Source: Lentimicrobiaceae bacterium
GTDB taxonomy: Bacteria; Bacteroidota; Bacteroidia; Bacteroidales; F082
Direction: 5' to 3'
NCBI GenBank assembly: GCA_015061335.1
Contig: SUWT01000007.1
Span: forward strand, 897-64,896
Length of the DNA stretch: 64,000 bases
Within the stretch, counting starts at the first letter, position 1. Each line of letters opens with the position of its first letter. This document shows positions 13,897 through 21,717 of the stretch, piece by piece. Under the pieces are notes generated by a model. That model made no database searches and was not told the origin of the DNA. It worked only from the letters and a program-made list of their open reading frames with translations. The translations under genes and the position numbers were made by a program.

Positions 13897-13904
13897 TATT
13901 TTTG
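13897..13904 (+). promoter_or_regulatory. -7 box TATTTTTG
   Basis: Exact TAnnTTTG match 21 nt upstream of the ATG at 13926. This argues against the TTG start at 13902. Confidence 0.45.
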
Positions 13905-13925
13905 CAGAACAAAATTATAAAAAAA

Positions 13926-15920
13926 ATGAAGAGAAATTTTACTATTACAGTATTGTTTTTATGTTTAGTGTTGGGTTTGGGACTCAATGCTTTCTCGCAA
14001 CAACAAGAACTTCCTGAATGGAGATTGAAGAAATATCTTTCAGAGGAGGAGATGAGAATGCCAGTCAGAAACATTAATTTCACAGAGACGGATCCTCCGA
14101 CGGCTGAGGTTCGTTTTCCGGGCGAATATGAGCCAATGCAGGCTGCAATGGTTGTATATCCTCTTGGTATCCCTGTGGAGCTTGTAAGAGAGATGGCGGA
14201 AGATTGTAAAGTCATTGTTGTTGCAAGATCATCAGACCAATCGTATGCTGAGAATGAGTTTCAATCAGCAAATGTTAATATGGACAACATAGAATTCCTG
14301 AATGCTAATACAGATTCATACTGGATTCGTGACTTTGGTCCTTGGTATATCTTTAATGGCAAAGAGCCTGCTATTGTTGATAACAGATACAATCGTCCTC
14401 GTCCTAATGACGATGAAATTCCTGGACATTTTGCGGAATACTGGGATATTGAGATGTTCGGGATGAATGTTGTTCATACAGGAGGTAACATGATGGAAGA
14501 TGGTCGCTGTCATGGGGTTTCCGATGATATTGTTATTACAGAGAGTGCGTCATACGGCATCACTGAGGATGAGGTTTATGAAAGGATGAAAGCTTATCTT
14601 GGCATTGATCCTTATCATGTGACAATCGACCCACAAGGTGATTATATTGCTCACGTTGACTGCTGGGGAAAATATCTCGCTCCTGATAAGATCTTGTTGG
14701 CACGTGTTCCGGAGTCAAATCCTCGTTACCCTTACTATGAGGAGGTAGCAGAATATTTCGCCACCACAAATTGTTGCTGGGGTTATCCATATAAGATATA
14801 TCGTGTTGATATACCAGGTGGAAGTGTTATCTCTCCTTATACTAATAGTTTGATTCTCAATAATAAAGTTCTTATGCCATTGGGGTCTAACTCGGCATAT
14901 AATGAAGCTGCTCTCAATATATATCGTGAGGCGATGCCTGGTTATGAAGTTATAGGCGTAGAAAATAATAGTTATTGGGATGGCTGGTTAAATACCGACG
15001 CTCTCCACTGCCGTGTTCGTGGTGTGATGGATTTCAATATGTTCTATGTAGATCATCGTGATGTTGTTTTCGGTGAACAGGAATGGCAAGATTCTGTCGC
15101 CATCACATCTAAGTTCATCGCTTATAGCGGCGCTGAACTGAAACAAGATTCTCTCCTCGTATATTATAGCATCGACGGTGGGGAATATCAGACAGCAAAG
15201 ATGACTTCAACAGGAAATCCGGACGAATATGTAGGTTATATCAAAGGTTATAACGGAGGATCGAAAATAGATTATTATGTGTTCGGTGCTGATGAGTCAA
15301 ACCGCAGATACCAACAACCGGTCTTTGGTGAACTCGACCCTCATACATTTACAATGGGAGAACACGTAGAAACATTGTTGACTTTAAATCCTGAAGAGAT
15401 TGTTTTCGATGAGACTTATGAACATAATGTTCCACAAATCCTGACAATAACAAATAATACAGCTGCCGATGTCGTCATAAACGATATTATGATAAAAGAT
15501 CAAGATAGTTATAATATAGAATTTGATTTTTCATTGCCATATACAATTGCCGTTGGTGAATCGGCAGAAGTTGATGTTTATGCTACGTATGTATTCAAAT
15601 GGATCGGTTTCGAAACAGAAATCGTCATCACTTCATCAGTAGGCGAACAGGTAGTTACTGTTATGTATGACGGCACAGTCGGTCTCGAAGAAAACAGTTT
15701 CGCATCGACTGAGATTTATCCGAATCCTATGAACGATGTCCTTTATATCGAGTCTGAAAATATTATAAGTGTAACAATCTTCAATGCTGTAGGACAACAA
15801 GTATTATTCGTCGAAAACAGAAATGAAATTGATGTGACCGAATTAAATGACGGACTTTATTTCGTAAGACTTGTTGACGACAAAGGTAATACATTAACAA
15901 AGAAAATCATTAAGCAATAA
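13926..15920 (+). CDS. secreted agmatine deiminase / Porphyromonas-type peptidylarginine deiminase family protein with T9SS C-terminal sorting domain
   Basis: Signal peptide MKRNFTITVLFLCLVLGLGLNAFSQ. Guanidino-modifying motifs PGEYEP, WIRDFGPW, HTGGNMMEDG, AHVDCW, TDALHCR (Cys nucleophile). Ig-like middle region. Type-A CTD IYPNPMNDVLYIE...GLYFVRLVDDKGNTLTKKIIKQ. Confidence 0.8.
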   Translation: MKRNFTITVLFLCLVLGLGLNAFSQQQELPEWRLKKYLSEEEMRMPVRNINFTETDPPTAEVRFPGEYEPMQAAMVVYPLGIPVELVREMAEDCKVIVVARSSDQSYAENEFQSANVNMDNIEFLNANTDSYWIRDFGPWYIFNGKEPAIVDNRYNRPRPNDDEIPGHFAEYWDIEMFGMNVVHTGGNMMEDGRCHGVSDDIVITESASYGITEDEVYERMKAYLGIDPYHVTIDPQGDYIAHVDCWGKYLAPDKILLARVPESNPRYPYYEEVAEYFATTNCCWGYPYKIYRVDIPGGSVISPYTNSLILNNKVLMPLGSNSAYNEAALNIYREAMPGYEVIGVENNSYWDGWLNTDALHCRVRGVMDFNMFYVDHRDVVFGEQEWQDSVAITSKFIAYSGAELKQDSLLVYYSIDGGEYQTAKMTSTGNPDEYVGYIKGYNGGSKIDYYVFGADESNRRYQQPVFGELDPHTFTMGEHVETLLTLNPEEIVFDETYEHNVPQILTITNNTAADVVINDIMIKDQDSYNIEFDFSLPYTIAVGESAEVDVYATYVFKWIGFETEIVITSSVGEQVVTVMYDGTVGLEENSFASTEIYPNPMNDVLYIESENIISVTIFNAVGQQVLFVENRNEIDVTELNDGLYFVRLVDDKGNTLTKKIIKQ

Positions 15921-15929
15921 TTATTATTT

Positions 15930-15957
15930 GGGACGTTTTTATACGTCCCTTTTTTTT
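15930..15957 (+). terminator. rho-independent terminator GGGACG-loop-CGTCCC + T8
   Basis: Perfect 6-bp GC-rich stem with an 8-nt loop, then TTTTTTTT. It starts 10 nt after the stop at 15920. Confidence 0.75.
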
Positions 15958-15963
15958 ACCATT

Positions 15964-17031
15964 ATGAGACGCTTCATACAATTATCATCCATTTTAATAA
16001 TCTTAATATTTTTAGGAGGGTGTACATCAAATGCACTATATGATGATGTGTCCGACATCTCGGAAAAGAATATCGGCATACTTCATTCTAATGTTGAGAA
16101 GGATGTTATGAACGTTCTCTTTCCTCATGCCTCGGTTATGGAATATGACAAAGTGATTTCACTATTTCTTGATATGGAATCTAATCGTTGTGATGTTGCG
16201 GTGATGACGCAAGAAATCGCCGATATGGTTGTAAAACGTAATCAGGATTATGTGTTGCTTGGTTCTGTTGCAACGCCAGATGGCGAGGATTTTTTTGTTG
16301 TCGTACCACGTGAAAATATTGCGGTTGGCGAGGATATTTCAATCAAAGAGATATCTTTTTTCGAGAAGATAAAAGGCAGCCTTAGTCGTAACTTATTTAA
16401 TGAAAAGGCGATGCATCTGATATGGGGCGGTTTCAAGACTACCGTCATCATATTCTTCTTCGGCGCCATTTTAGCTATAATATTAGGTGCGTTCTTGGCG
16501 TATCTATCTATAAGTCATAAATGTCTTTGGCTATATAAACCTCTCAGTTGGTTTGTGATGACGATTCACGACATTCCGTCTGTCGTGCTGATGATGTTTT
16601 TCTTCTATGTCGTTTTTGCCGGAGCGATGAACGGAATATTCGTCTCAATAATAGCTCTCGGCATATATGCCTCTGGAGCGTTATATAAAGTATTTAAGAT
16701 ACATATCACGCAAGTCGGGAAAGGACAACTTGAGGCTGGACGTATGTTAGGGCTCAGCTCCTATAAATGTTATCGTTACATCATACTGCCTCAGGCTGTC
16801 AAGACGATGTTGCCTTTGGTGGGAGGCGAACTTAAGCTTTTGTTGAGAGCAACTTCCTACGCAGGTTACATAGCTCAGAAAGATCTGGTAAAAGCCGTCG
16901 ATGCCATAAGAGGATTCACCTACGATGCTTTCGTGCCTTTGTTGTTAGTATCGCTACTATATCTCCTCTTGTCATGGCTTATAGTGAAATCATTAGATTA
17001 TATATCAAAAAAAGTATTTAACAATGATTGA
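15964..17031 (+). CDS. ABC permease (polar amino acid HisM/GlnP-type TMD) with N-terminal lipoprotein signal and partial SBP_bac_3-like domain
   Basis: Starts MRRFIQLSSILIILIFLGGCTSN. About 130 aa are periplasmic-binding-like (CDVAVMTQEIADMVVKRNQDYVLLG). The TMD has an EAA-type loop GQLEAGRMLGLSSYKCYRYIILPQA. The TTG start at 15928 lies inside the terminator. Confidence 0.7.
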   Translation: MRRFIQLSSILIILIFLGGCTSNALYDDVSDISEKNIGILHSNVEKDVMNVLFPHASVMEYDKVISLFLDMESNRCDVAVMTQEIADMVVKRNQDYVLLGSVATPDGEDFFVVVPRENIAVGEDISIKEISFFEKIKGSLSRNLFNEKAMHLIWGGFKTTVIIFFFGAILAIILGAFLAYLSISHKCLWLYKPLSWFVMTIHDIPSVVLMMFFFYVVFAGAMNGIFVSIIALGIYASGALYKVFKIHITQVGKGQLEAGRMLGLSSYKCYRYIILPQAVKTMLPLVGGELKLLLRATSYAGYIAQKDLVKAVDAIRGFTYDAFVPLLLVSLLYLLLSWLIVKSLDYISKKVFNND

Positions 17032-18094
17032 ATTCTTACATATCAGTAAATCGTTTCAGGGTAAGGAGATTCTTCATGATGTGTCGTTGTCTGTCGAGGA
17101 AGGTCAGACGGTATGTATCATAGGAGCGTCAGGATGTGGTAAGACGACATTGTTACGTTGCATCGCAGGATTGGAAAGCAATCATCGCAGTCAGCTGTCG
17201 GCTGTCAGCTGTCAGCTAAAAGCTAAAATCGGTATGGTGTTCCAGAAATTCAATCTTTTTGAGAATATGAATGTATTGGATAATCTCACTTTTGCTCCTA
17301 TCCATGTTTTGAATATGAAGAAGGAAGATGCCGAACGTCTTGCGATGGAACATCTTAAGATGGTCGGCATGTCGGAGAGAGTCGCATATTATCCGAATCA
17401 GCTTTCGTCAGGACAGCAGCAGCGTGTCGCCATAGCACGATGTTTAGTGATGAAACCGGAGCTTCTGCTTCTCGACGAGCCGCTGTCATCTCTCGACCCT
17501 ATATCTCGCAGCGAGGTGATGGATGTCTTGCGTATAATAAAGAAAGATATAACAATGATAATGGTGTCGCACGACCTCGATGCCGTTGCTGAACTTGCAG
17601 ATCGCGTCATCTTTGTCAATAACGGCTCGATATGTGAAGAGGGAAAACCTGAGCAAATCTTGTCGTTACCTTTAAAAGAAGAGACACGGCATTTTATCAA
17701 CAGCCGGAAAAACCTTTTCTATACGATAAAGTCACATGACTTCGACCGTCCTGAACTTAATGCGCGTATCGAACACTATTGTAATAGATTCGGATTAGGC
17801 GGACAAGCGCATAGATTCGTACAGTTGGCAGTAGAAGAATCGCTTAATATCATACCTTTAGATAATAAAGTGGAACTCGTTTTGTCGAAGAAAAATGACG
17901 AGGTGAGAATGTCGTTGGATCTTACTTTTGATGATACAGGACATGATTGTCTTAATGAAGAAAATGTGTCGGAAGAGAATTTCTTAAGCCTCAATATCCT
18001 TCAAGGCTTATGCGATATAATAGAAGAGAAAGTAGAAAAAGATATGCGTCATATTCATCTTGAATTGAATCAAGAGAGACTGTTGTTGAGGTGA
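17024..18094 (+). CDS. ABC transporter ATP-binding protein with shortened beta-subdomain and C-terminal RsbW/GHKL-like (degenerate) domain
   Basis: Walker A GASGCGKT, Q-loop IGMVFQKF, signature LSSGQQQRV, Walker B LLLLDEP, H-loop VSHD. Only 17 aa lie between ..GLE and IGMVFQ, and they are encoded by a heptamer array. The C-terminal ~130 aa align to the kinase domain of the 19061 gene. Confidence 0.75.
   Translation: MIEFLHISKSFQGKEILHDVSLSVEEGQTVCIIGASGCGKTTLLRCIAGLESNHRSQLSAVSCQLKAKIGMVFQKFNLFENMNVLDNLTFAPIHVLNMKKEDAERLAMEHLKMVGMSERVAYYPNQLSSGQQQRVAIARCLVMKPELLLLDEPLSSLDPISRSEVMDVLRIIKKDITMIMVSHDLDAVAELADRVIFVNNGSICEEGKPEQILSLPLKEETRHFINSRKNLFYTIKSHDFDRPELNARIEHYCNRFGLGGQAHRFVQLAVEESLNIIPLDNKVELVLSKKNDEVRMSLDLTFDDTGHDCLNEENVSEENFLSLNILQGLCDIIEEKVEKDMRHIHLELNQERLLLR
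17192..17226 (+). repeat. intragenic heptamer array CAGCTGT CGGCTGT CAGCTGT CAGCTAA AAGCTAA
   Basis: Read directly from the sequence. It encodes ..QLSAVSCQLKAK.. inside the ATPase gene. The same unit family occurs at 22615-22677, 34395-34428 and 39438-39465. Confidence 0.9.
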
Positions 18095-18126
18095 TTGATA
18101 GTTGACAATTGACAATTAACAATTAA
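18093..18126 (+). repeat. heptamer array (GACAATT/AACAATT family) filling the intra-operon spacer
   Basis: TGATTGATAGTT GACAATT GACAATT AACAATT. It starts inside the TGA stop (18092-18094) and ends 2 nt before the ATG at 18129. Confidence 0.85.
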
Positions 18127-18128
18127 GG

Positions 18129-19064
18129 ATGAGAAAGATATTGTTTTTATTATTGATGTTTTTTATGATGATGGATGCTGTTGCTCAGCGGATAGTCTTC
18201 ACTCCGCAGTGGCTGCCTCAGAGTCAGTTTGCCGGTTATTACGTCGCGCAGGAAAAAGGATTCTATGAAGAGGTCGGTCTCGATGTCGTGATAGAACATG
18301 TGTCGGCTTCTGACTTTGCCATCAATCGTCTCAAGGAAGGAAAATGCGACGCCATCACCATGACGTTGTTCGACGCGATTGTCAATATCGACGCTGGCTT
18401 GGATATAGTCAATGTTCTACAGACGGCTATGCATACAGGTCTCGTTATCGTCCCTCGTAATAATGATATAAAGTCATTGGAGGATCTGCGTGATAAGCGT
18501 GTCGGGATTTGGCGAACTCATTACAACTATCTTTCTGAGATTATGGATAAAGACCATAACCTAAATATCGAATGGATACCTTTTGTACAAAGTATAAATC
18601 TTTATATCTCAGGTGCTGTCGATGCAACGATGGCGATGATTTATAACGAAGCATATCAGATTTATGCCTCAGGTTTTGAAGATGTTGAGTTTATCTCGCT
18701 TGCCGATTGCGGCTATGATTTCCCTGAAGAAGGAATATATTTTACAAAAGAATTCTATGAACAATATCCCGACAAGGCAAAAGCCTTTGCTCAGGCGTCG
18801 CGTCGTGGCTGGGAGTGGGCGCATCAGCATCCTGAAGAGACTCTCGACATCGTGATGAAAGTTGTTGAAGATAATAATATGCCCGCTGGTCGCCAGCATC
18901 AGGAATGGATGTTGAGAGAAGTCCTTAAACTTCAACTTGATAAAGATTTAAACATGCCAGCCTTCGAACTCAAGGAAGAGAAGATTAAACAGATTAATGA
19001 GTTGCTGTTAGAGAATAATCGTATCAAAAAAGCAGTGACAAAATCAAAGATTATAGGAGAATGA
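18129..19064 (+). CDS. NMT1/THI5-like (SsuA-type) periplasmic substrate-binding protein
   Basis: 311 aa with signal peptide MRKILFLLLMFFMMMDAVAQ. N-terminal motif FTPQWLPQSQFAGYYVAQEKGFYEEVGLDV is typical of this SBP class. Confidence 0.7.
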   Translation: MRKILFLLLMFFMMMDAVAQRIVFTPQWLPQSQFAGYYVAQEKGFYEEVGLDVVIEHVSASDFAINRLKEGKCDAITMTLFDAIVNIDAGLDIVNVLQTAMHTGLVIVPRNNDIKSLEDLRDKRVGIWRTHYNYLSEIMDKDHNLNIEWIPFVQSINLYISGAVDATMAMIYNEAYQIYASGFEDVEFISLADCGYDFPEEGIYFTKEFYEQYPDKAKAFAQASRRGWEWAHQHPEETLDIVMKVVEDNNMPAGRQHQEWMLREVLKLQLDKDLNMPAFELKEEKIKQINELLLENNRIKKAVTKSKIIGE

Positions 19065-21409
19065 CGATGAAACGTAAAAGAAATATATTGAATTCTTTGT
19101 CAACACGACTCAGTCTCTTCATATTGGCAGTCACAACATCATTGTTGATAACCATCGTTATTCTTAACTACAACTCATCGCGTAATCTCGTGAAAGAAGA
19201 ATCTATAGAGCGTGCGCAGTCGGTGCTCGACAATACTATCTTGCGAATCGACAATGTTCTGAACTCTGTAGAGACGGCGGTACATAATATCTCATGGACT
19301 GTGAAGGAGAATGTCGATAATCCGGAGTATATGTATGATGTGACAAAACGACTTATAGAAAGTGACGACTTTATTAGCGGTAGCGCCGTTGCTTTTGAAC
19401 CTGATTTCTATCCCGATAAAGGTCATTTCTATTCGCCTTATTCCTATCGTGACGGAGAAAAAATCGTAAGTAAACAACTTGGAAATCAGGATTACGACTA
19501 TCATTATATGGATTGGTATCAGATTCCAAAGCTGTTAGACAAGCCATATTGGAGCGAACCTTATTTCGATCAAGGTGGAGCCGATGTCATTATGACTACA
19601 TATTCATATCCTTTATATGACAGTGACGGAAAATTGTTCGCCATCATCACTGCCGACATCTCTTTGGAATGGTTCGCAGAACAGGTTAACTCTATCAAGA
19701 CTTATCCTAACTCGTTCAACCTGATGATTGGTCGTGGTGGAACGTATCTCGTTCATAAAGATACAAAAGCAATTCTGAATAAGACTATGTTTGAGGCAGC
19801 ATTGGCAAATGATGATGAAGTGATTTTCGAGACTGCTCACGAGATGGTAGAAGGTAAACGAGGAATGGCATATTTTGATTATGGTGAGAAATCGTATCTC
19901 TTCTATGCTCCTATTCAAGCGACGGGATGGTCGGTGGCAGTGACATGTTTGCAACAAGATATTTTCGCTAAAGTTGATGATATGAGAGCTCATGTCATGA
20001 TGGTGGCGATACCGGGATTGGTTTTGTTGGTGGTGTTATGTTATCTTCTTATTCGCTATATGATGAATCCTCTCAATGAGTTTGCTCTGTCGGCAATGGA
20101 GATAGCGAAAGGTAATTTCAAGGCTGAACTGCCAAAACGTAAGAAAAACTACGAGATGAGAACCCTGCATAACTCGTTCAGTTTTATGCAGAAGTCATTG
20201 CAGAATTATATTGACGAACTGCAACTCACGACGGTGAATAAAGAACGTATCGAGAGTGAGTTGCGTATCGCTCGCGACATACAGATGGGGATGGTTCCTA
20301 AGATTTTCCCTCCTTTCCCAAAACGCGATGACGTGGATTTATACGGTATGCTTATCCCCGCCAAAGAAGTAGGAGGCGACTTATACGACTTTTTTATCGA
20401 AGATGATAAGTTGCATTTCATTATCGGTGACGTCTCCGGAAAAGGTGTGCCCGCTTCATTGGTCATGGCTGTGACATGTCGTCTGTTCAGAACTGTAGCA
20501 TCGAGTGTTCACTCTCCTTCGCAGATAATAAATATATTGAACAACGCGATAGCAGAGTCTAACGAATCGAATATGTTCTGTACGGCTTTTGTCGGCGTAT
20601 TGGATCTGAGAACAGGACATCTGCAATATTGTAACGCTGGACATAATCCTCCTGTCGTCATAACATCTGAAGGAAAGACTTCTTTCTTGTCGGTGAAACC
20701 TAATCTCGCCATGGGACTTTGGGAAGGCTTTGAATATCAAGAACAAGAATGTGTGATAGAGAAAGGAACAAATATCTTCCTTTATACCGATGGCGTGAAC
20801 GAGGCGGAAAATATCACGAAAGAATTATATGGCGACGACAGATTGCTGCAATTCTTGTCGAGACATTTTAAGAGCAAACCTCGTAATATAGTTGAAGAAT
20901 TATATGACGACATTAAACTTCATTCGAAAGATGCTGAACAAAATGACGACATTACGATGCTGTGTTTTACCGTGCTTGAGGATCTGCCTAAATCAGATTC
21001 TTGTAAAAGACTCGTGATGCGTAACGATATAGCCGACATTGCTCTTATGGCGGAATTCATAGAAACATTATGCGATGAGAACCAACTTCCGATGGATGTT
21101 TGTTTCAACCTCAATCTCGCTCTGGAAGAAGCCGTATCTAACGTGATGAAATATGCCTATCCCGAAAATGAAACGCATGAGATTATGCTTACTGCAGACA
21201 TAAAAGACAATAGCATCATATTCGAGTTGAGCGATACGGGCAAGCCTTTTGATCCTACAGAAGTGGAAGATGCCGACGTGACTCTTTCTGCCGAAGAACG
21301 TCCTATCGGCGGATTAGGAATATTCCTCATAAGAAAGATAATGAAATCTGTGGCATATAAAAGAGATGGGAATAGGAATGTATTGACTATGATATTTACT
21401 TTAAACTGA
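19061..21409 (+). CDS. membrane sensor: dCache - HAMP - PP2C (SpoIIE/RsbU-type) phosphatase - RsbW-like anti-sigma kinase domain
   Basis: 782 aa with two TM segments flanking a Cache-like domain (YMDWYQIP..PYWSEPYFDQGG..YSYPLYDSDGKLFAIITADISLEWF). PP2C motifs GGDLYDF, GDVSGKGVPASL, AGHNPP, LYTDGVNEA, DDITMLC. GHKL motifs LEEAVSNVMKYA, SDTGKPFDP, GGLGIFLIRK. ATGA overlap with the upstream gene. Confidence 0.8.
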   Translation: MTMKRKRNILNSLSTRLSLFILAVTTSLLITIVILNYNSSRNLVKEESIERAQSVLDNTILRIDNVLNSVETAVHNISWTVKENVDNPEYMYDVTKRLIESDDFISGSAVAFEPDFYPDKGHFYSPYSYRDGEKIVSKQLGNQDYDYHYMDWYQIPKLLDKPYWSEPYFDQGGADVIMTTYSYPLYDSDGKLFAIITADISLEWFAEQVNSIKTYPNSFNLMIGRGGTYLVHKDTKAILNKTMFEAALANDDEVIFETAHEMVEGKRGMAYFDYGEKSYLFYAPIQATGWSVAVTCLQQDIFAKVDDMRAHVMMVAIPGLVLLVVLCYLLIRYMMNPLNEFALSAMEIAKGNFKAELPKRKKNYEMRTLHNSFSFMQKSLQNYIDELQLTTVNKERIESELRIARDIQMGMVPKIFPPFPKRDDVDLYGMLIPAKEVGGDLYDFFIEDDKLHFIIGDVSGKGVPASLVMAVTCRLFRTVASSVHSPSQIINILNNAIAESNESNMFCTAFVGVLDLRTGHLQYCNAGHNPPVVITSEGKTSFLSVKPNLAMGLWEGFEYQEQECVIEKGTNIFLYTDGVNEAENITKELYGDDRLLQFLSRHFKSKPRNIVEELYDDIKLHSKDAEQNDDITMLCFTVLEDLPKSDSCKRLVMRNDIADIALMAEFIETLCDENQLPMDVCFNLNLALEEAVSNVMKYAYPENETHEIMLTADIKDNSIIFELSDTGKPFDPTEVEDADVTLSAEERPIGGLGIFLIRKIMKSVAYKRDGNRNVLTMIFTLN

Positions 21410-21417
21410 CAAAAACT

Positions 21418-21717
21418 ATGGAATTAAAGATTCGTCAAGAAAATGCAGCGACTGTTGTTGAGATTATAGGTCGCTTAGATACTATCACAGCCCCTGACTT
21501 GGATGCAGCTGTGAAACCGCTTATCGTCGATGGAGTGGAGCTTATCTTCGATTGCGAGGGATTAGAATATATCAGCAGTTCGGGATTGAGAGTCGTCATC
21601 GCGACGCACAAACAGATGATGACATGCTCCGGAAAACTTATAATACGTCATCTCAATAGAGAGGTGAAATCGGTTTTTGACCTCACAGGATTTTCAAATA
21701 TCCTGAATATCTGTTAA
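21418..21717 (+). CDS. STAS-domain anti-sigma-factor antagonist (RsbV/SpoIIAA-like)
   Basis: 99 aa. Contains the conserved phosphorylatable serine context LEYISSSGLRVVI. Confidence 0.85.
   Translation: MELKIRQENAATVVEIIGRLDTITAPDLDAAVKPLIVDGVELIFDCEGLEYISSSGLRVVIATHKQMMTCSGKLIIRHLNREVKSVFDLTGFSNILNIC

Follow-up and report, generated by a model that had tools for sequence, protein, structure and literature searches.

The ABC ATPase encoded at positions 17024..18094 (+) of a 64,000-nucleotide stretch of contig SUWT01000007.1, from a Lentimicrobiaceae bacterium (the whole stretch is called the window below), carries behind its nucleotide-binding domain (NBD) a second domain of about 130 residues. 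Fold, profile-profile comparison and transitive sequence evidence confirmed this tail as an RsbW/SpoIIAB-type GHKL (HATPase_c_2) domain, and motif statistics support its description as a pseudokinase. The 356-aa ATPase is the second product of a five-gene cluster (15928-21717, all on the plus strand, with intergenic overlaps or gaps of no more than 34 nt) that encodes, in order, a permease, the ABC ATPase, an NMT1-like binding protein, a dCache-HAMP-PP2C-HATPase_c_2 sensor and a STAS protein. Given these neighbours, the tail is a candidate receptor for the STAS protein in a partner switch that would act directly on the transporter.

Fold and homology of the ATPase tail

The first-pass annotation had placed the C-terminal ~130 aa of the ATPase in the RsbW/GHKL fold and had aligned them motif by motif with the C-terminus of the sensor gene starting at 19061. 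Direct searches did not detect this relationship. No Pfam or NCBIfam model covered tail residues 228-356 (nt 17705-18091 plus the stop codon; for Pfam, none at E ≤ 1), a BLASTP comparison of the tail with the kinase domain of the sensor gave insignificant E values (0.024-26), and hhalign of a shallow 24-sequence tail profile against a single sequence returned 0.9%. Searches of the PDB by phmmer or hmmsearch with the tail or a narrow family profile found no match to the tail, and the PDB matches of another profile (A1) were ABC ATPases only, reached through the NBD remnant that this profile contained. These methods were simply too insensitive.

When a tail profile of 65 sequences was aligned by hhalign with 14 kinase domains from the same set of operons, the two were matched with 93-95% probability (E 5e-8, 110-127 columns) and in the register proposed at first pass. 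The alignment paired RIEHYCNRFGL...LAVEESLN of the tail with FIETLCDENQL...LALEEAVSN of the 19061 sensor, LSLNILQGL with LGIFLIRKI, and IHLEL with VLTMI. The N-box, G2 and final-strand pairings of the original motif-by-motif match were thereby recovered, although no pairwise BLASTP comparison reached significance. The G1 pairing, DDTG with SDTG, fared less well: the computed alignments deviate from it by no more than 1-2 residues, and relatives do not conserve it.

More distant relatives connected the tail to an annotated domain family. The window tail matched the hidden Markov model of the broad family at E 1.5e-18, and 16 of 22 broad-family tails matched Pfam HATPase_c_2 (PF13581) at E ≤ 0.01, the best of them at E 7.5e-8 over model positions 7-126 of 127; one score, of 27.1 bits, fell just below the gathering cut-off of 27.4. 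Profile-profile comparison of the broad family with true kinases gave 97.5%.

Structure prediction agreed with the sequence evidence. AlphaFold2 modelled the tail alone at a predicted local distance difference test (pLDDT) score of 81.6 and the full-length ATPase at a mean of 91.4 (predicted template-modelling score, pTM, 0.83), with the tail blocks at 84-95, and both models showed the topology strand, two helices, two strands, loop (lid), helix, two strands. Foldseek of the tail model (residues 228-356) against the PDB returned UsfX, RsbW (6m36/6m37) or SpoIIAB (1tid) chains as all of its top 19 matches, led by UsfX 8ih8_C (E 4e-6, target-normalised template-modelling (TM) score 0.73) and with target-normalised TM scores of up to 0.78; SiaB and the catalytic (CA) domains of histidine kinases followed. 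A TOBE, MetN-C2 or MalK-type regulatory domain, the kind of fold that the first-pass annotation had named as the alternative assignment, was ruled out. The tail matched GHKL structures only, MetN, PotA, MalK, GlcV and CysA chains superposed on the NBD only (whole-chain root-mean-square deviation, rmsd, 9-13 Å), and neither Pfam TOBE nor NIL matched the tail.

Decay of the ATP site

A motif table was compiled from 48 true RsbW-like kinases of the family loci and 134 tails, 65 of them close relatives and 69 from the broad family. The GG-L-G of the G2 box was kept in 48/48 kinases, and its first two glycines were deleted in 134/134 tails, in line with the earlier observation that LSLNILQ replaces the glycine-rich lid; the third glycine is a serine in the window subfamily (LSLN in place of GGLG). 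The ATP lid comprises 14 residues in tails versus 24 in kinases, being ~10 residues shorter in every tail. The G1 aspartate, present in 48/48 kinases, is represented by a D-x-G in 17/65 close and 2/69 broad-family tails (absent in 48/65 and 67/69, respectively). The N-box asparagine occurs in 48/48 kinases and 43/65 close tails and is glutamine in 67/69 broad-family tails, and the helix that follows it is ~6 residues shorter in tails. The acidic EE of the N-box persists in 97% or more of the tails, the kinases having E or D and then E. Conservation along the tail is highest in helix 1, at the EE of the N-box helix and in what is left of G2.

In GHKL kinases the G2 loop binds phosphate; that both loop and lid are lost speaks strongly against the predicted pseudokinase binding ATP. 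The motif statistics likewise support the tail being kinase-dead, as the first-pass annotation had thought probable. The window tail still retains E271-E272, N275 and a DDTG remnant, the last displaced by 1-2 residues from the kinase G1 box in the computed alignments; to judge from the aligned relatives, N275 and DDTG are evidently not under family-wide selection.

Age and distribution of the fusion

A narrow profile recovered 24 close relatives, 47 representative clusters (from a search of 1.84 billion representatives with profile A2) and 16 genome loci. Fifteen of these loci belong to gut Bacteroidales-type metagenome-assembled genomes (MAGs) of Lentimicrobiaceae, Rikenellaceae/Alistipes, Muribaculaceae, Bacteroides and Phocaeicola, and one is a fragment in a bin labelled Clostridia; the closest relatives of the window are animal-gut MAGs labelled Bacteroidales or Lentimicrobiaceae. 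The tiny, Bacteroidales-only family that the narrow profile suggested was overturned by a more diverse profile, which gave at least 153 clusters with source names including Trichlorobacter, Methylococcaceae, Aminicenantes, Marinimicrobia and Syntrophomonas. Some of these relatives already bear a precomputed Pfam ABC_tran+HATPase_c_2 annotation. A metagenome scan yielded at least 343 confirmed loci with the NBD-tail fusion.

The fusion is thus old, widespread and present in several phyla, and it is not a local copy of the window sensor's kinase domain. A recent duplication of that domain was ruled out because the fusion is old and spread over several phyla, so that the term 'paralogous', used for the two domains at first pass, holds as homology and not as recent copying.

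The NBD gene was found split by a 4-nt deletion (frameshift) within a AATGAATG tandem in two independent samples (L002 ~1360-1370 and L004 ~500), and the AATGAATG repeat was intact in a third (L003 ~1690). The frameshift is a population-level polymorphism, not an assembly error.

Gene neighbourhoods

The order permease, NBD-tail, [substrate-binding protein (SBP), sensor], STAS is conserved in 16 Bacteroidales loci, with some variation in its parts. A stand-alone 136-aa kinase takes the place of the sensor between NBD-tail and STAS in L013 and likewise in L015, where the ATPase gene is truncated, and the STAS gene directly follows the NBD-tail gene in L018. Three loci have a separate kinase open reading frame of 136-137 aa after a sensor that ends in PP2C (L016 11367-11780, L019 12236-12646 and L020 12406-12816). 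The phosphatase-kinase fusion of the window sensor is therefore not fixed, the kinase being separate in Bacteroides/Phocaeicola-type loci.

A second STAS paralogue was seen upstream of the permease in many loci (L010 71-361, L011 6015-6305, L013 6155-6445, L023 878-1171). It has 96-97 aa, shares ~45% identity with the downstream STAS and retains the SSGLR motif; the window and its closest relatives are without it.

Distant members retain the link to STAS or kinase genes in other gene orders (L022, L023, L024/25, L028 and L030). L030 has SBP-permease, NBD-tail and STAS, and L024/25 have kinase, STAS, SBP-permease and NBD-tail, with opposite-strand genes flanking downstream. The L024/25 operon is self-contained, and the transporter is therefore its only available output. 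Among the listed metagenome matches, 55 loci were informative, having at least 1.5 kb downstream of the NBD-tail gene. A STAS gene immediately followed the NBD-tail gene in 34 of the 55, an RsbW-like kinase was nearby, usually as the next gene, in 32, and a Cache-PP2C sensor was nearby in 14; Pfam bore out the assignments on example loci. No further target gene stood out as conserved across the loci, and the neighbourhoods held no conserved sigma factor or regulator gene, a Sigma70_r4 gene occurring in L028 only.

Genes for RelA_SpoT small alarmone synthetases adjoin two distant NBD-tail/STAS loci (L022 11-886 and L028 7827-9501), as does an HD_4 hydrolase gene in L028. Amino-acid import control may thus be linked to (p)ppGpp signalling.

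A partner switch with the transporter as putative output

The window locus has the parts of a partner switch, namely a STAS protein with a phosphorylatable serine, an intact RsbW-type kinase and a PP2C phosphatase. The reading that we favour, with moderate confidence, is that the output of this switch is the transporter itself, the kinase-dead tail being the receptor for the dephosphorylated STAS protein and the sensor gating import after translation. The PP2C domain of the sensor would dephosphorylate STAS, and the intact kinase domain of the sensor, or a stand-alone kinase at other loci, would re-phosphorylate it, the balance being set by a ligand at the dCache domain in the periplasm, where the co-translated NMT1-like binding protein might assist. 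Dephosphorylated STAS would then bind the RsbW-like tails beneath the NBD dimer. The complex would be stable because the tail, as proposed, cannot phosphorylate STAS, and it would alter NBD closure or ATPase activity so as to turn import on or off, with either sign conceivable. The proposed docking of STAS on the tail rests on gene context and analogy. Divergence of STAS correlated with divergence of the tail when the NBD was controlled for (partial Mantel r 0.63, p 2e-4; reverse test r 0.10, p 0.09), which lends weak support to STAS-tail co-evolution beyond that with the NBD of the same polypeptide.

Several observations weigh against this reading. The main caveat is that ~38% (21/55) of the informative metagenome loci have neither STAS nor kinase adjoining the NBD-tail gene, as has the Bacteroides locus L017, so the tail may work without these proteins or with partners encoded elsewhere. 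The N275 and DDTG retained by the window tail may leave it some residual nucleotide binding. Partial Mantel tests are also anticonservative for phylogenetically related data. Finally, the kinase co-occurs with the NBD-tail gene nearly as often as STAS does (32 versus 34 loci), and RsbW-type proteins are dimers, which makes a tail-kinase heterodimer conceivable.

This last point speaks for a reversed flow of information, in which the tail would bring either STAS or the true kinase to the NBDs, the transport cycle or substrate flux would set the phosphorylation of STAS and the target would lie outside the locus. The RelA_SpoT genes near two family loci fit such nutrient signalling as well. We nevertheless consider the transporter unlikely to be the sensor. 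The window sensor already owns a periplasmic dCache input domain, no conserved extra target gene accompanies the family, and the self-contained L024/25 operons, which hold kinase, STAS, SBP-permease and NBD-tail only, offer no other output candidate; it is because these operons leave the transporter as the only output that we prefer it in that role.

In another reading, the tail would be a membrane-tethered, anti-sigma-like domain that sequesters a transcription factor until STAS displaces it, and would couple transport to expression in the manner of RsbW/sigma-B or MalK/MalT. The top structural match, UsfX, is an anti-sigma factor, and the best matches (8jzt, 1l0o, 8ih8) are complexes of an anti-sigma factor with its sigma factor or antagonist. 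Against this stands the lack of a conserved sigma factor or regulator gene nearby, and Bacteroidales are not known to have sigma-B/F-type sigma factors; we regard the sequestering role as improbable.

We give a similarly small chance to a tail that works apart from any partner switch, as a dimerising regulatory domain perhaps engaged in trans-inhibition by a small ligand (as in MetN C2 and ModC), the neighbouring genes then regulating expression or another step of the pathway. Importer NBDs commonly bear C-terminal regulatory domains (PMC10710835), and 38% of the informative loci have no adjacent STAS gene. Yet the tail is homologous to the STAS-binding kinase family itself, and its adjacency to STAS and kinase genes recurs in several gene orders and phyla. 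Its conserved segments, moreover, correspond to helix 1, the N-box EE and the G2 region of SpoIIAB, which form its SpoIIAA-facing side (1TH8/1TID). That the tail is still an active serine kinase or ATP-binding module phosphorylating STAS at the transporter, for which N275, E271/E272 and DDTG of the window tail and the D-x-G remnant of some close relatives could be cited, is very improbable in view of the G2 deletion and shortened lid of every tail, the absence of D-x-G from most close and broad-family tails, the scarcity of the N-box asparagine in the broad family, and the intact dedicated kinase alongside in most loci.

A second transporter class

Genes for Xan_ur_permease (NCS2-family) secondary transporters were found in NBD-tail clusters at L045 6420-8123, L049 1277-2980, L052 6398-8128, and 7231-8934 of both L053 and L054. 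In L052 the permease gene follows the NBD-tail gene directly, and in L045, L049 and L053/L054 the STAS and kinase genes precede it. The last ~130 aa of the Xan_ur_permease matched RsbW-type kinases by hhalign (94.7%, E 6e-8) and are degenerate in the N, G1 and G2 boxes. Because this permease carries a degenerate RsbW-like C-terminal domain of its own, the sequences point to such a domain being a modular, transporter-borne receptor. We tentatively extend the proposal to both classes, as a possibility slightly less likely than not and, if true, a widespread and so far unrecognised mode of post-translational transporter control: kinase-dead RsbW-like domains on ABC importer NBDs and on some NCS2 permeases would be receptors for phospho-regulated STAS proteins, through which a partner switch under the command of a Cache-PP2C sensor, or of cellular ATP acting via the kinase, would gate nutrient uptake directly and not a sigma factor.

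Components of the cluster

The features of the cluster are collected in Table 1. No second copy of the STAS, kinase, PP2C or tail sequences was found within the 64 kb window.

Table 1. Features of the transporter and partner-switch gene cluster (positions in the window)
Feature	Position	Strand	Evidence
ABC importer permease, polar-amino-acid type	15928..17031	+	Pfam BPD_transp_1 E 1.4e-11, residues 183-362
ABC ATPase NBD, residues 1-227	17024..17704	+	Pfam ABC_tran E 5.4e-35
C-terminal RsbW/SpoIIAB-like GHKL domain with degenerate ATP site, residues 228-356 and stop codon	17705..18094	+	AlphaFold2, Foldseek, hhalign, hidden Markov model, motif table
NMT1/THI5-like (SsuA-family-like) periplasmic binding protein	18129..19064	+	Pfam NMT1 E 1.6e-34
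Membrane sensor, 782 aa	19061..21409	+	Pfam SpoIIE 3e-54, MCP-like_PDC_1 5e-30, HATPase_c_2 1e-25, dCache_1 2e-17, HAMP 5e-5
Sensor domain dCache_1	19187-19945		
Sensor domain HAMP	20045-20203		
Sensor domain PP2C/SpoIIE	20402-20974		
Sensor domain RsbW-type Ser kinase	21023-21397		
Single-domain STAS protein, RsbV/SpoIIAA-like anti-sigma antagonist, 99 aa	21418..21717	+	Pfam STAS 3e-15

The NBD appears functional and is of the polar-amino-acid (GlnQ/HisP/ArtP) type by sequence, its translation containing Walker A GASGCGKT, Q-loop Q74, signature LSSGQ, Walker B LLLLDE and H-loop H183. The NCBIfam GlnQ model spans residues 1-226, and the ATPase is not a GlnQ orthologue because its score of 224 bits falls under the equivalog cut-off of 379 bits. 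By Foldseek the NBD matches ArtP 2ouk_B (E 6e-25, rmsd 2.0 Å over 232 columns), within an ArtP/HisP-like fold at rmsd 2.0-3.2 Å. The segment from Walker A to the Q-loop (residues 50-67, window 17171-17224) is unusually short and varies in length among orthologues; it was modelled at pLDDT <60, and residues 56-65 at <50.

The permease gene overlaps the ATPase gene by 8 nt. Its product also matches NCBIfam EhuD/HisM/GlnP-like models, with every score below cut-off, and its N-terminal extracytoplasmic region (~150 aa, window 15928-16450) has no Pfam match. In more distant family members SBP_bac_3 domains are joined to the permease, and a single chain of 1129 aa (P0068) combines permease, two SBP domains, NBD and tail. 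Directly upstream of the permease gene lies a gene (13902-15920) for a PAD_porph (peptidylarginine/agmatine deiminase-like) protein with a Por_Secre_tail signal for type IX secretion (T9SS); this synteny is retained in the four closest genomes (L006-L009) and may hint at the substrate of the transporter.

The NMT1-like protein matches NCBIfam SsuA_fam at E 1e-15, under cut-off, and its gene, which overlaps the sensor gene by 4 nt, keeps its synteny in most Bacteroidales loci. The sensor as a whole matches NCBIfam SiaA at E 6e-20, also under cut-off. Its kinase domain resembles RsbW 6m36_A (E 1.3e-4) and is intact, the N, G1 and G2 boxes being kept in all orthologues. The STAS protein passes NCBIfam TIGR00377 (74.2 bits versus a cut-off of 53.45) and carries the phosphorylatable-serine motif YISSSGLR, with Y[IV]SS[AS]GLR invariant in 37 orthologues; the second serine of SSSGL is the putative counterpart of SpoIIAA Ser58.

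Novelty and implications

To our knowledge, post-translational on/off control of ABC importers has been described for a few systems only, namely MalK-EIIA, MetN, ModC and PII with NrtCD. A full-text search of an incomplete literature collection found no paper on an ABC NBD fused to HATPase_c_2 or on a link of such a fusion to partner switching, and a 2023 review of transporter regulation mentions neither STAS nor an anti-sigma mechanism (PMC10710835). The first-pass annotation knew of no described NBD-pseudokinase fusion, and none came up in that literature search, although the architecture is neither rare nor invisible, some relatives being precomputed as ABC_tran+HATPase_c_2. The combination appears to be new and joins three known kinds of system: importer NBDs with a regulatory domain at the C-terminus, partner switches that act on something other than a sigma factor, and ABC ATPases regulated by STAS proteins. 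If the proposed mechanism is true, transporters would join the short list of non-sigma partner-switch outputs, and the tail would be a clear example, in bacteria, of a pseudokinase domain put to new use as a docking module. Gut Bacteroidales commonly carry members of the family, as do anaerobes of sediment and freshwater, so the family may control how bacteria of ecological importance take up amino acids.

Comparison with known systems

The tail shares with RsbW, SpoIIAB and UsfX the fold and topology, a detectable homology, the EE of the N-box and an encoded STAS partner next door. It differs from them in being joined to the C-terminal end of an ABC NBD rather than standing alone, in lacking a cognate sigma factor in the locus, and in its ATP site, which has no G2 glycine pair, a lid 10 residues shorter, and unconserved G1 aspartate and N-box asparagine.

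As an extra domain of ~120-130 aa after a type I importer NBD, the tail resembles the TOBE domain of MalK, the C2 domain of MetN and the corresponding parts of ModC, PotA and CysA, and it probably sits under the NBD dimer, where it would modulate closure as other importer C-terminal domains do. Those domains, in contrast, have an unrelated fold and bind small ligands or EIIA/MalT, not STAS.

The set of PP2C phosphatase, RsbW-like kinase and phosphorylatable STAS recalls SiaABCD of Pseudomonas and the HenR/STAS-glycosyltransferase system of Anabaena (PMC13555669), in which the likely output is likewise an enzyme or machine and not a sigma factor. In the window, the putative output is an ABC transporter, the putative STAS-receiving surface is a kinase-derived pseudokinase, and a single Cache-HAMP sensor unites phosphatase and kinase. 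In SLC26/SulP transporters, too, a partner-switch-type domain sits at the cytoplasmic end of the transporter; there the transporter carries the STAS half, whereas the window ATPase carries the kinase-like half and the STAS protein is separate.

MlaFEDB, a lipid transporter, has in common with the amino-acid-type importer of the window a single-domain STAS protein genetically coupled to an ABC ATPase, a coupling that in Mla is also physical and that is known here from the genes. MlaB binds and regulates the ATPase MlaF with its conserved phospho-site residue at the interface, and a phosphomimetic at the conserved threonine of MlaB weakens the binding (PMC7367683). MlaB docks straight on the MlaF NBD, MlaF having a C-terminal 'handshake' extension, and has no known kinase or phosphatase, whereas the window locus supplies both a kinase and a PP2C phosphatase and its NBD has a dedicated domain. 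MlaF has no RsbW-like domain, the Foldseek match to it (6xbd_I) being generic and confined to the NBD. It was left open in the MlaFB study whether the STAS regulator of an ABC ATPase can itself be phospho-regulated (PMC7367683), and the window operon, which holds together a sensor phosphatase, a kinase, a phosphorylatable STAS protein and an ATPase with a domain derived from STAS-binding kinases, makes that question directly testable.

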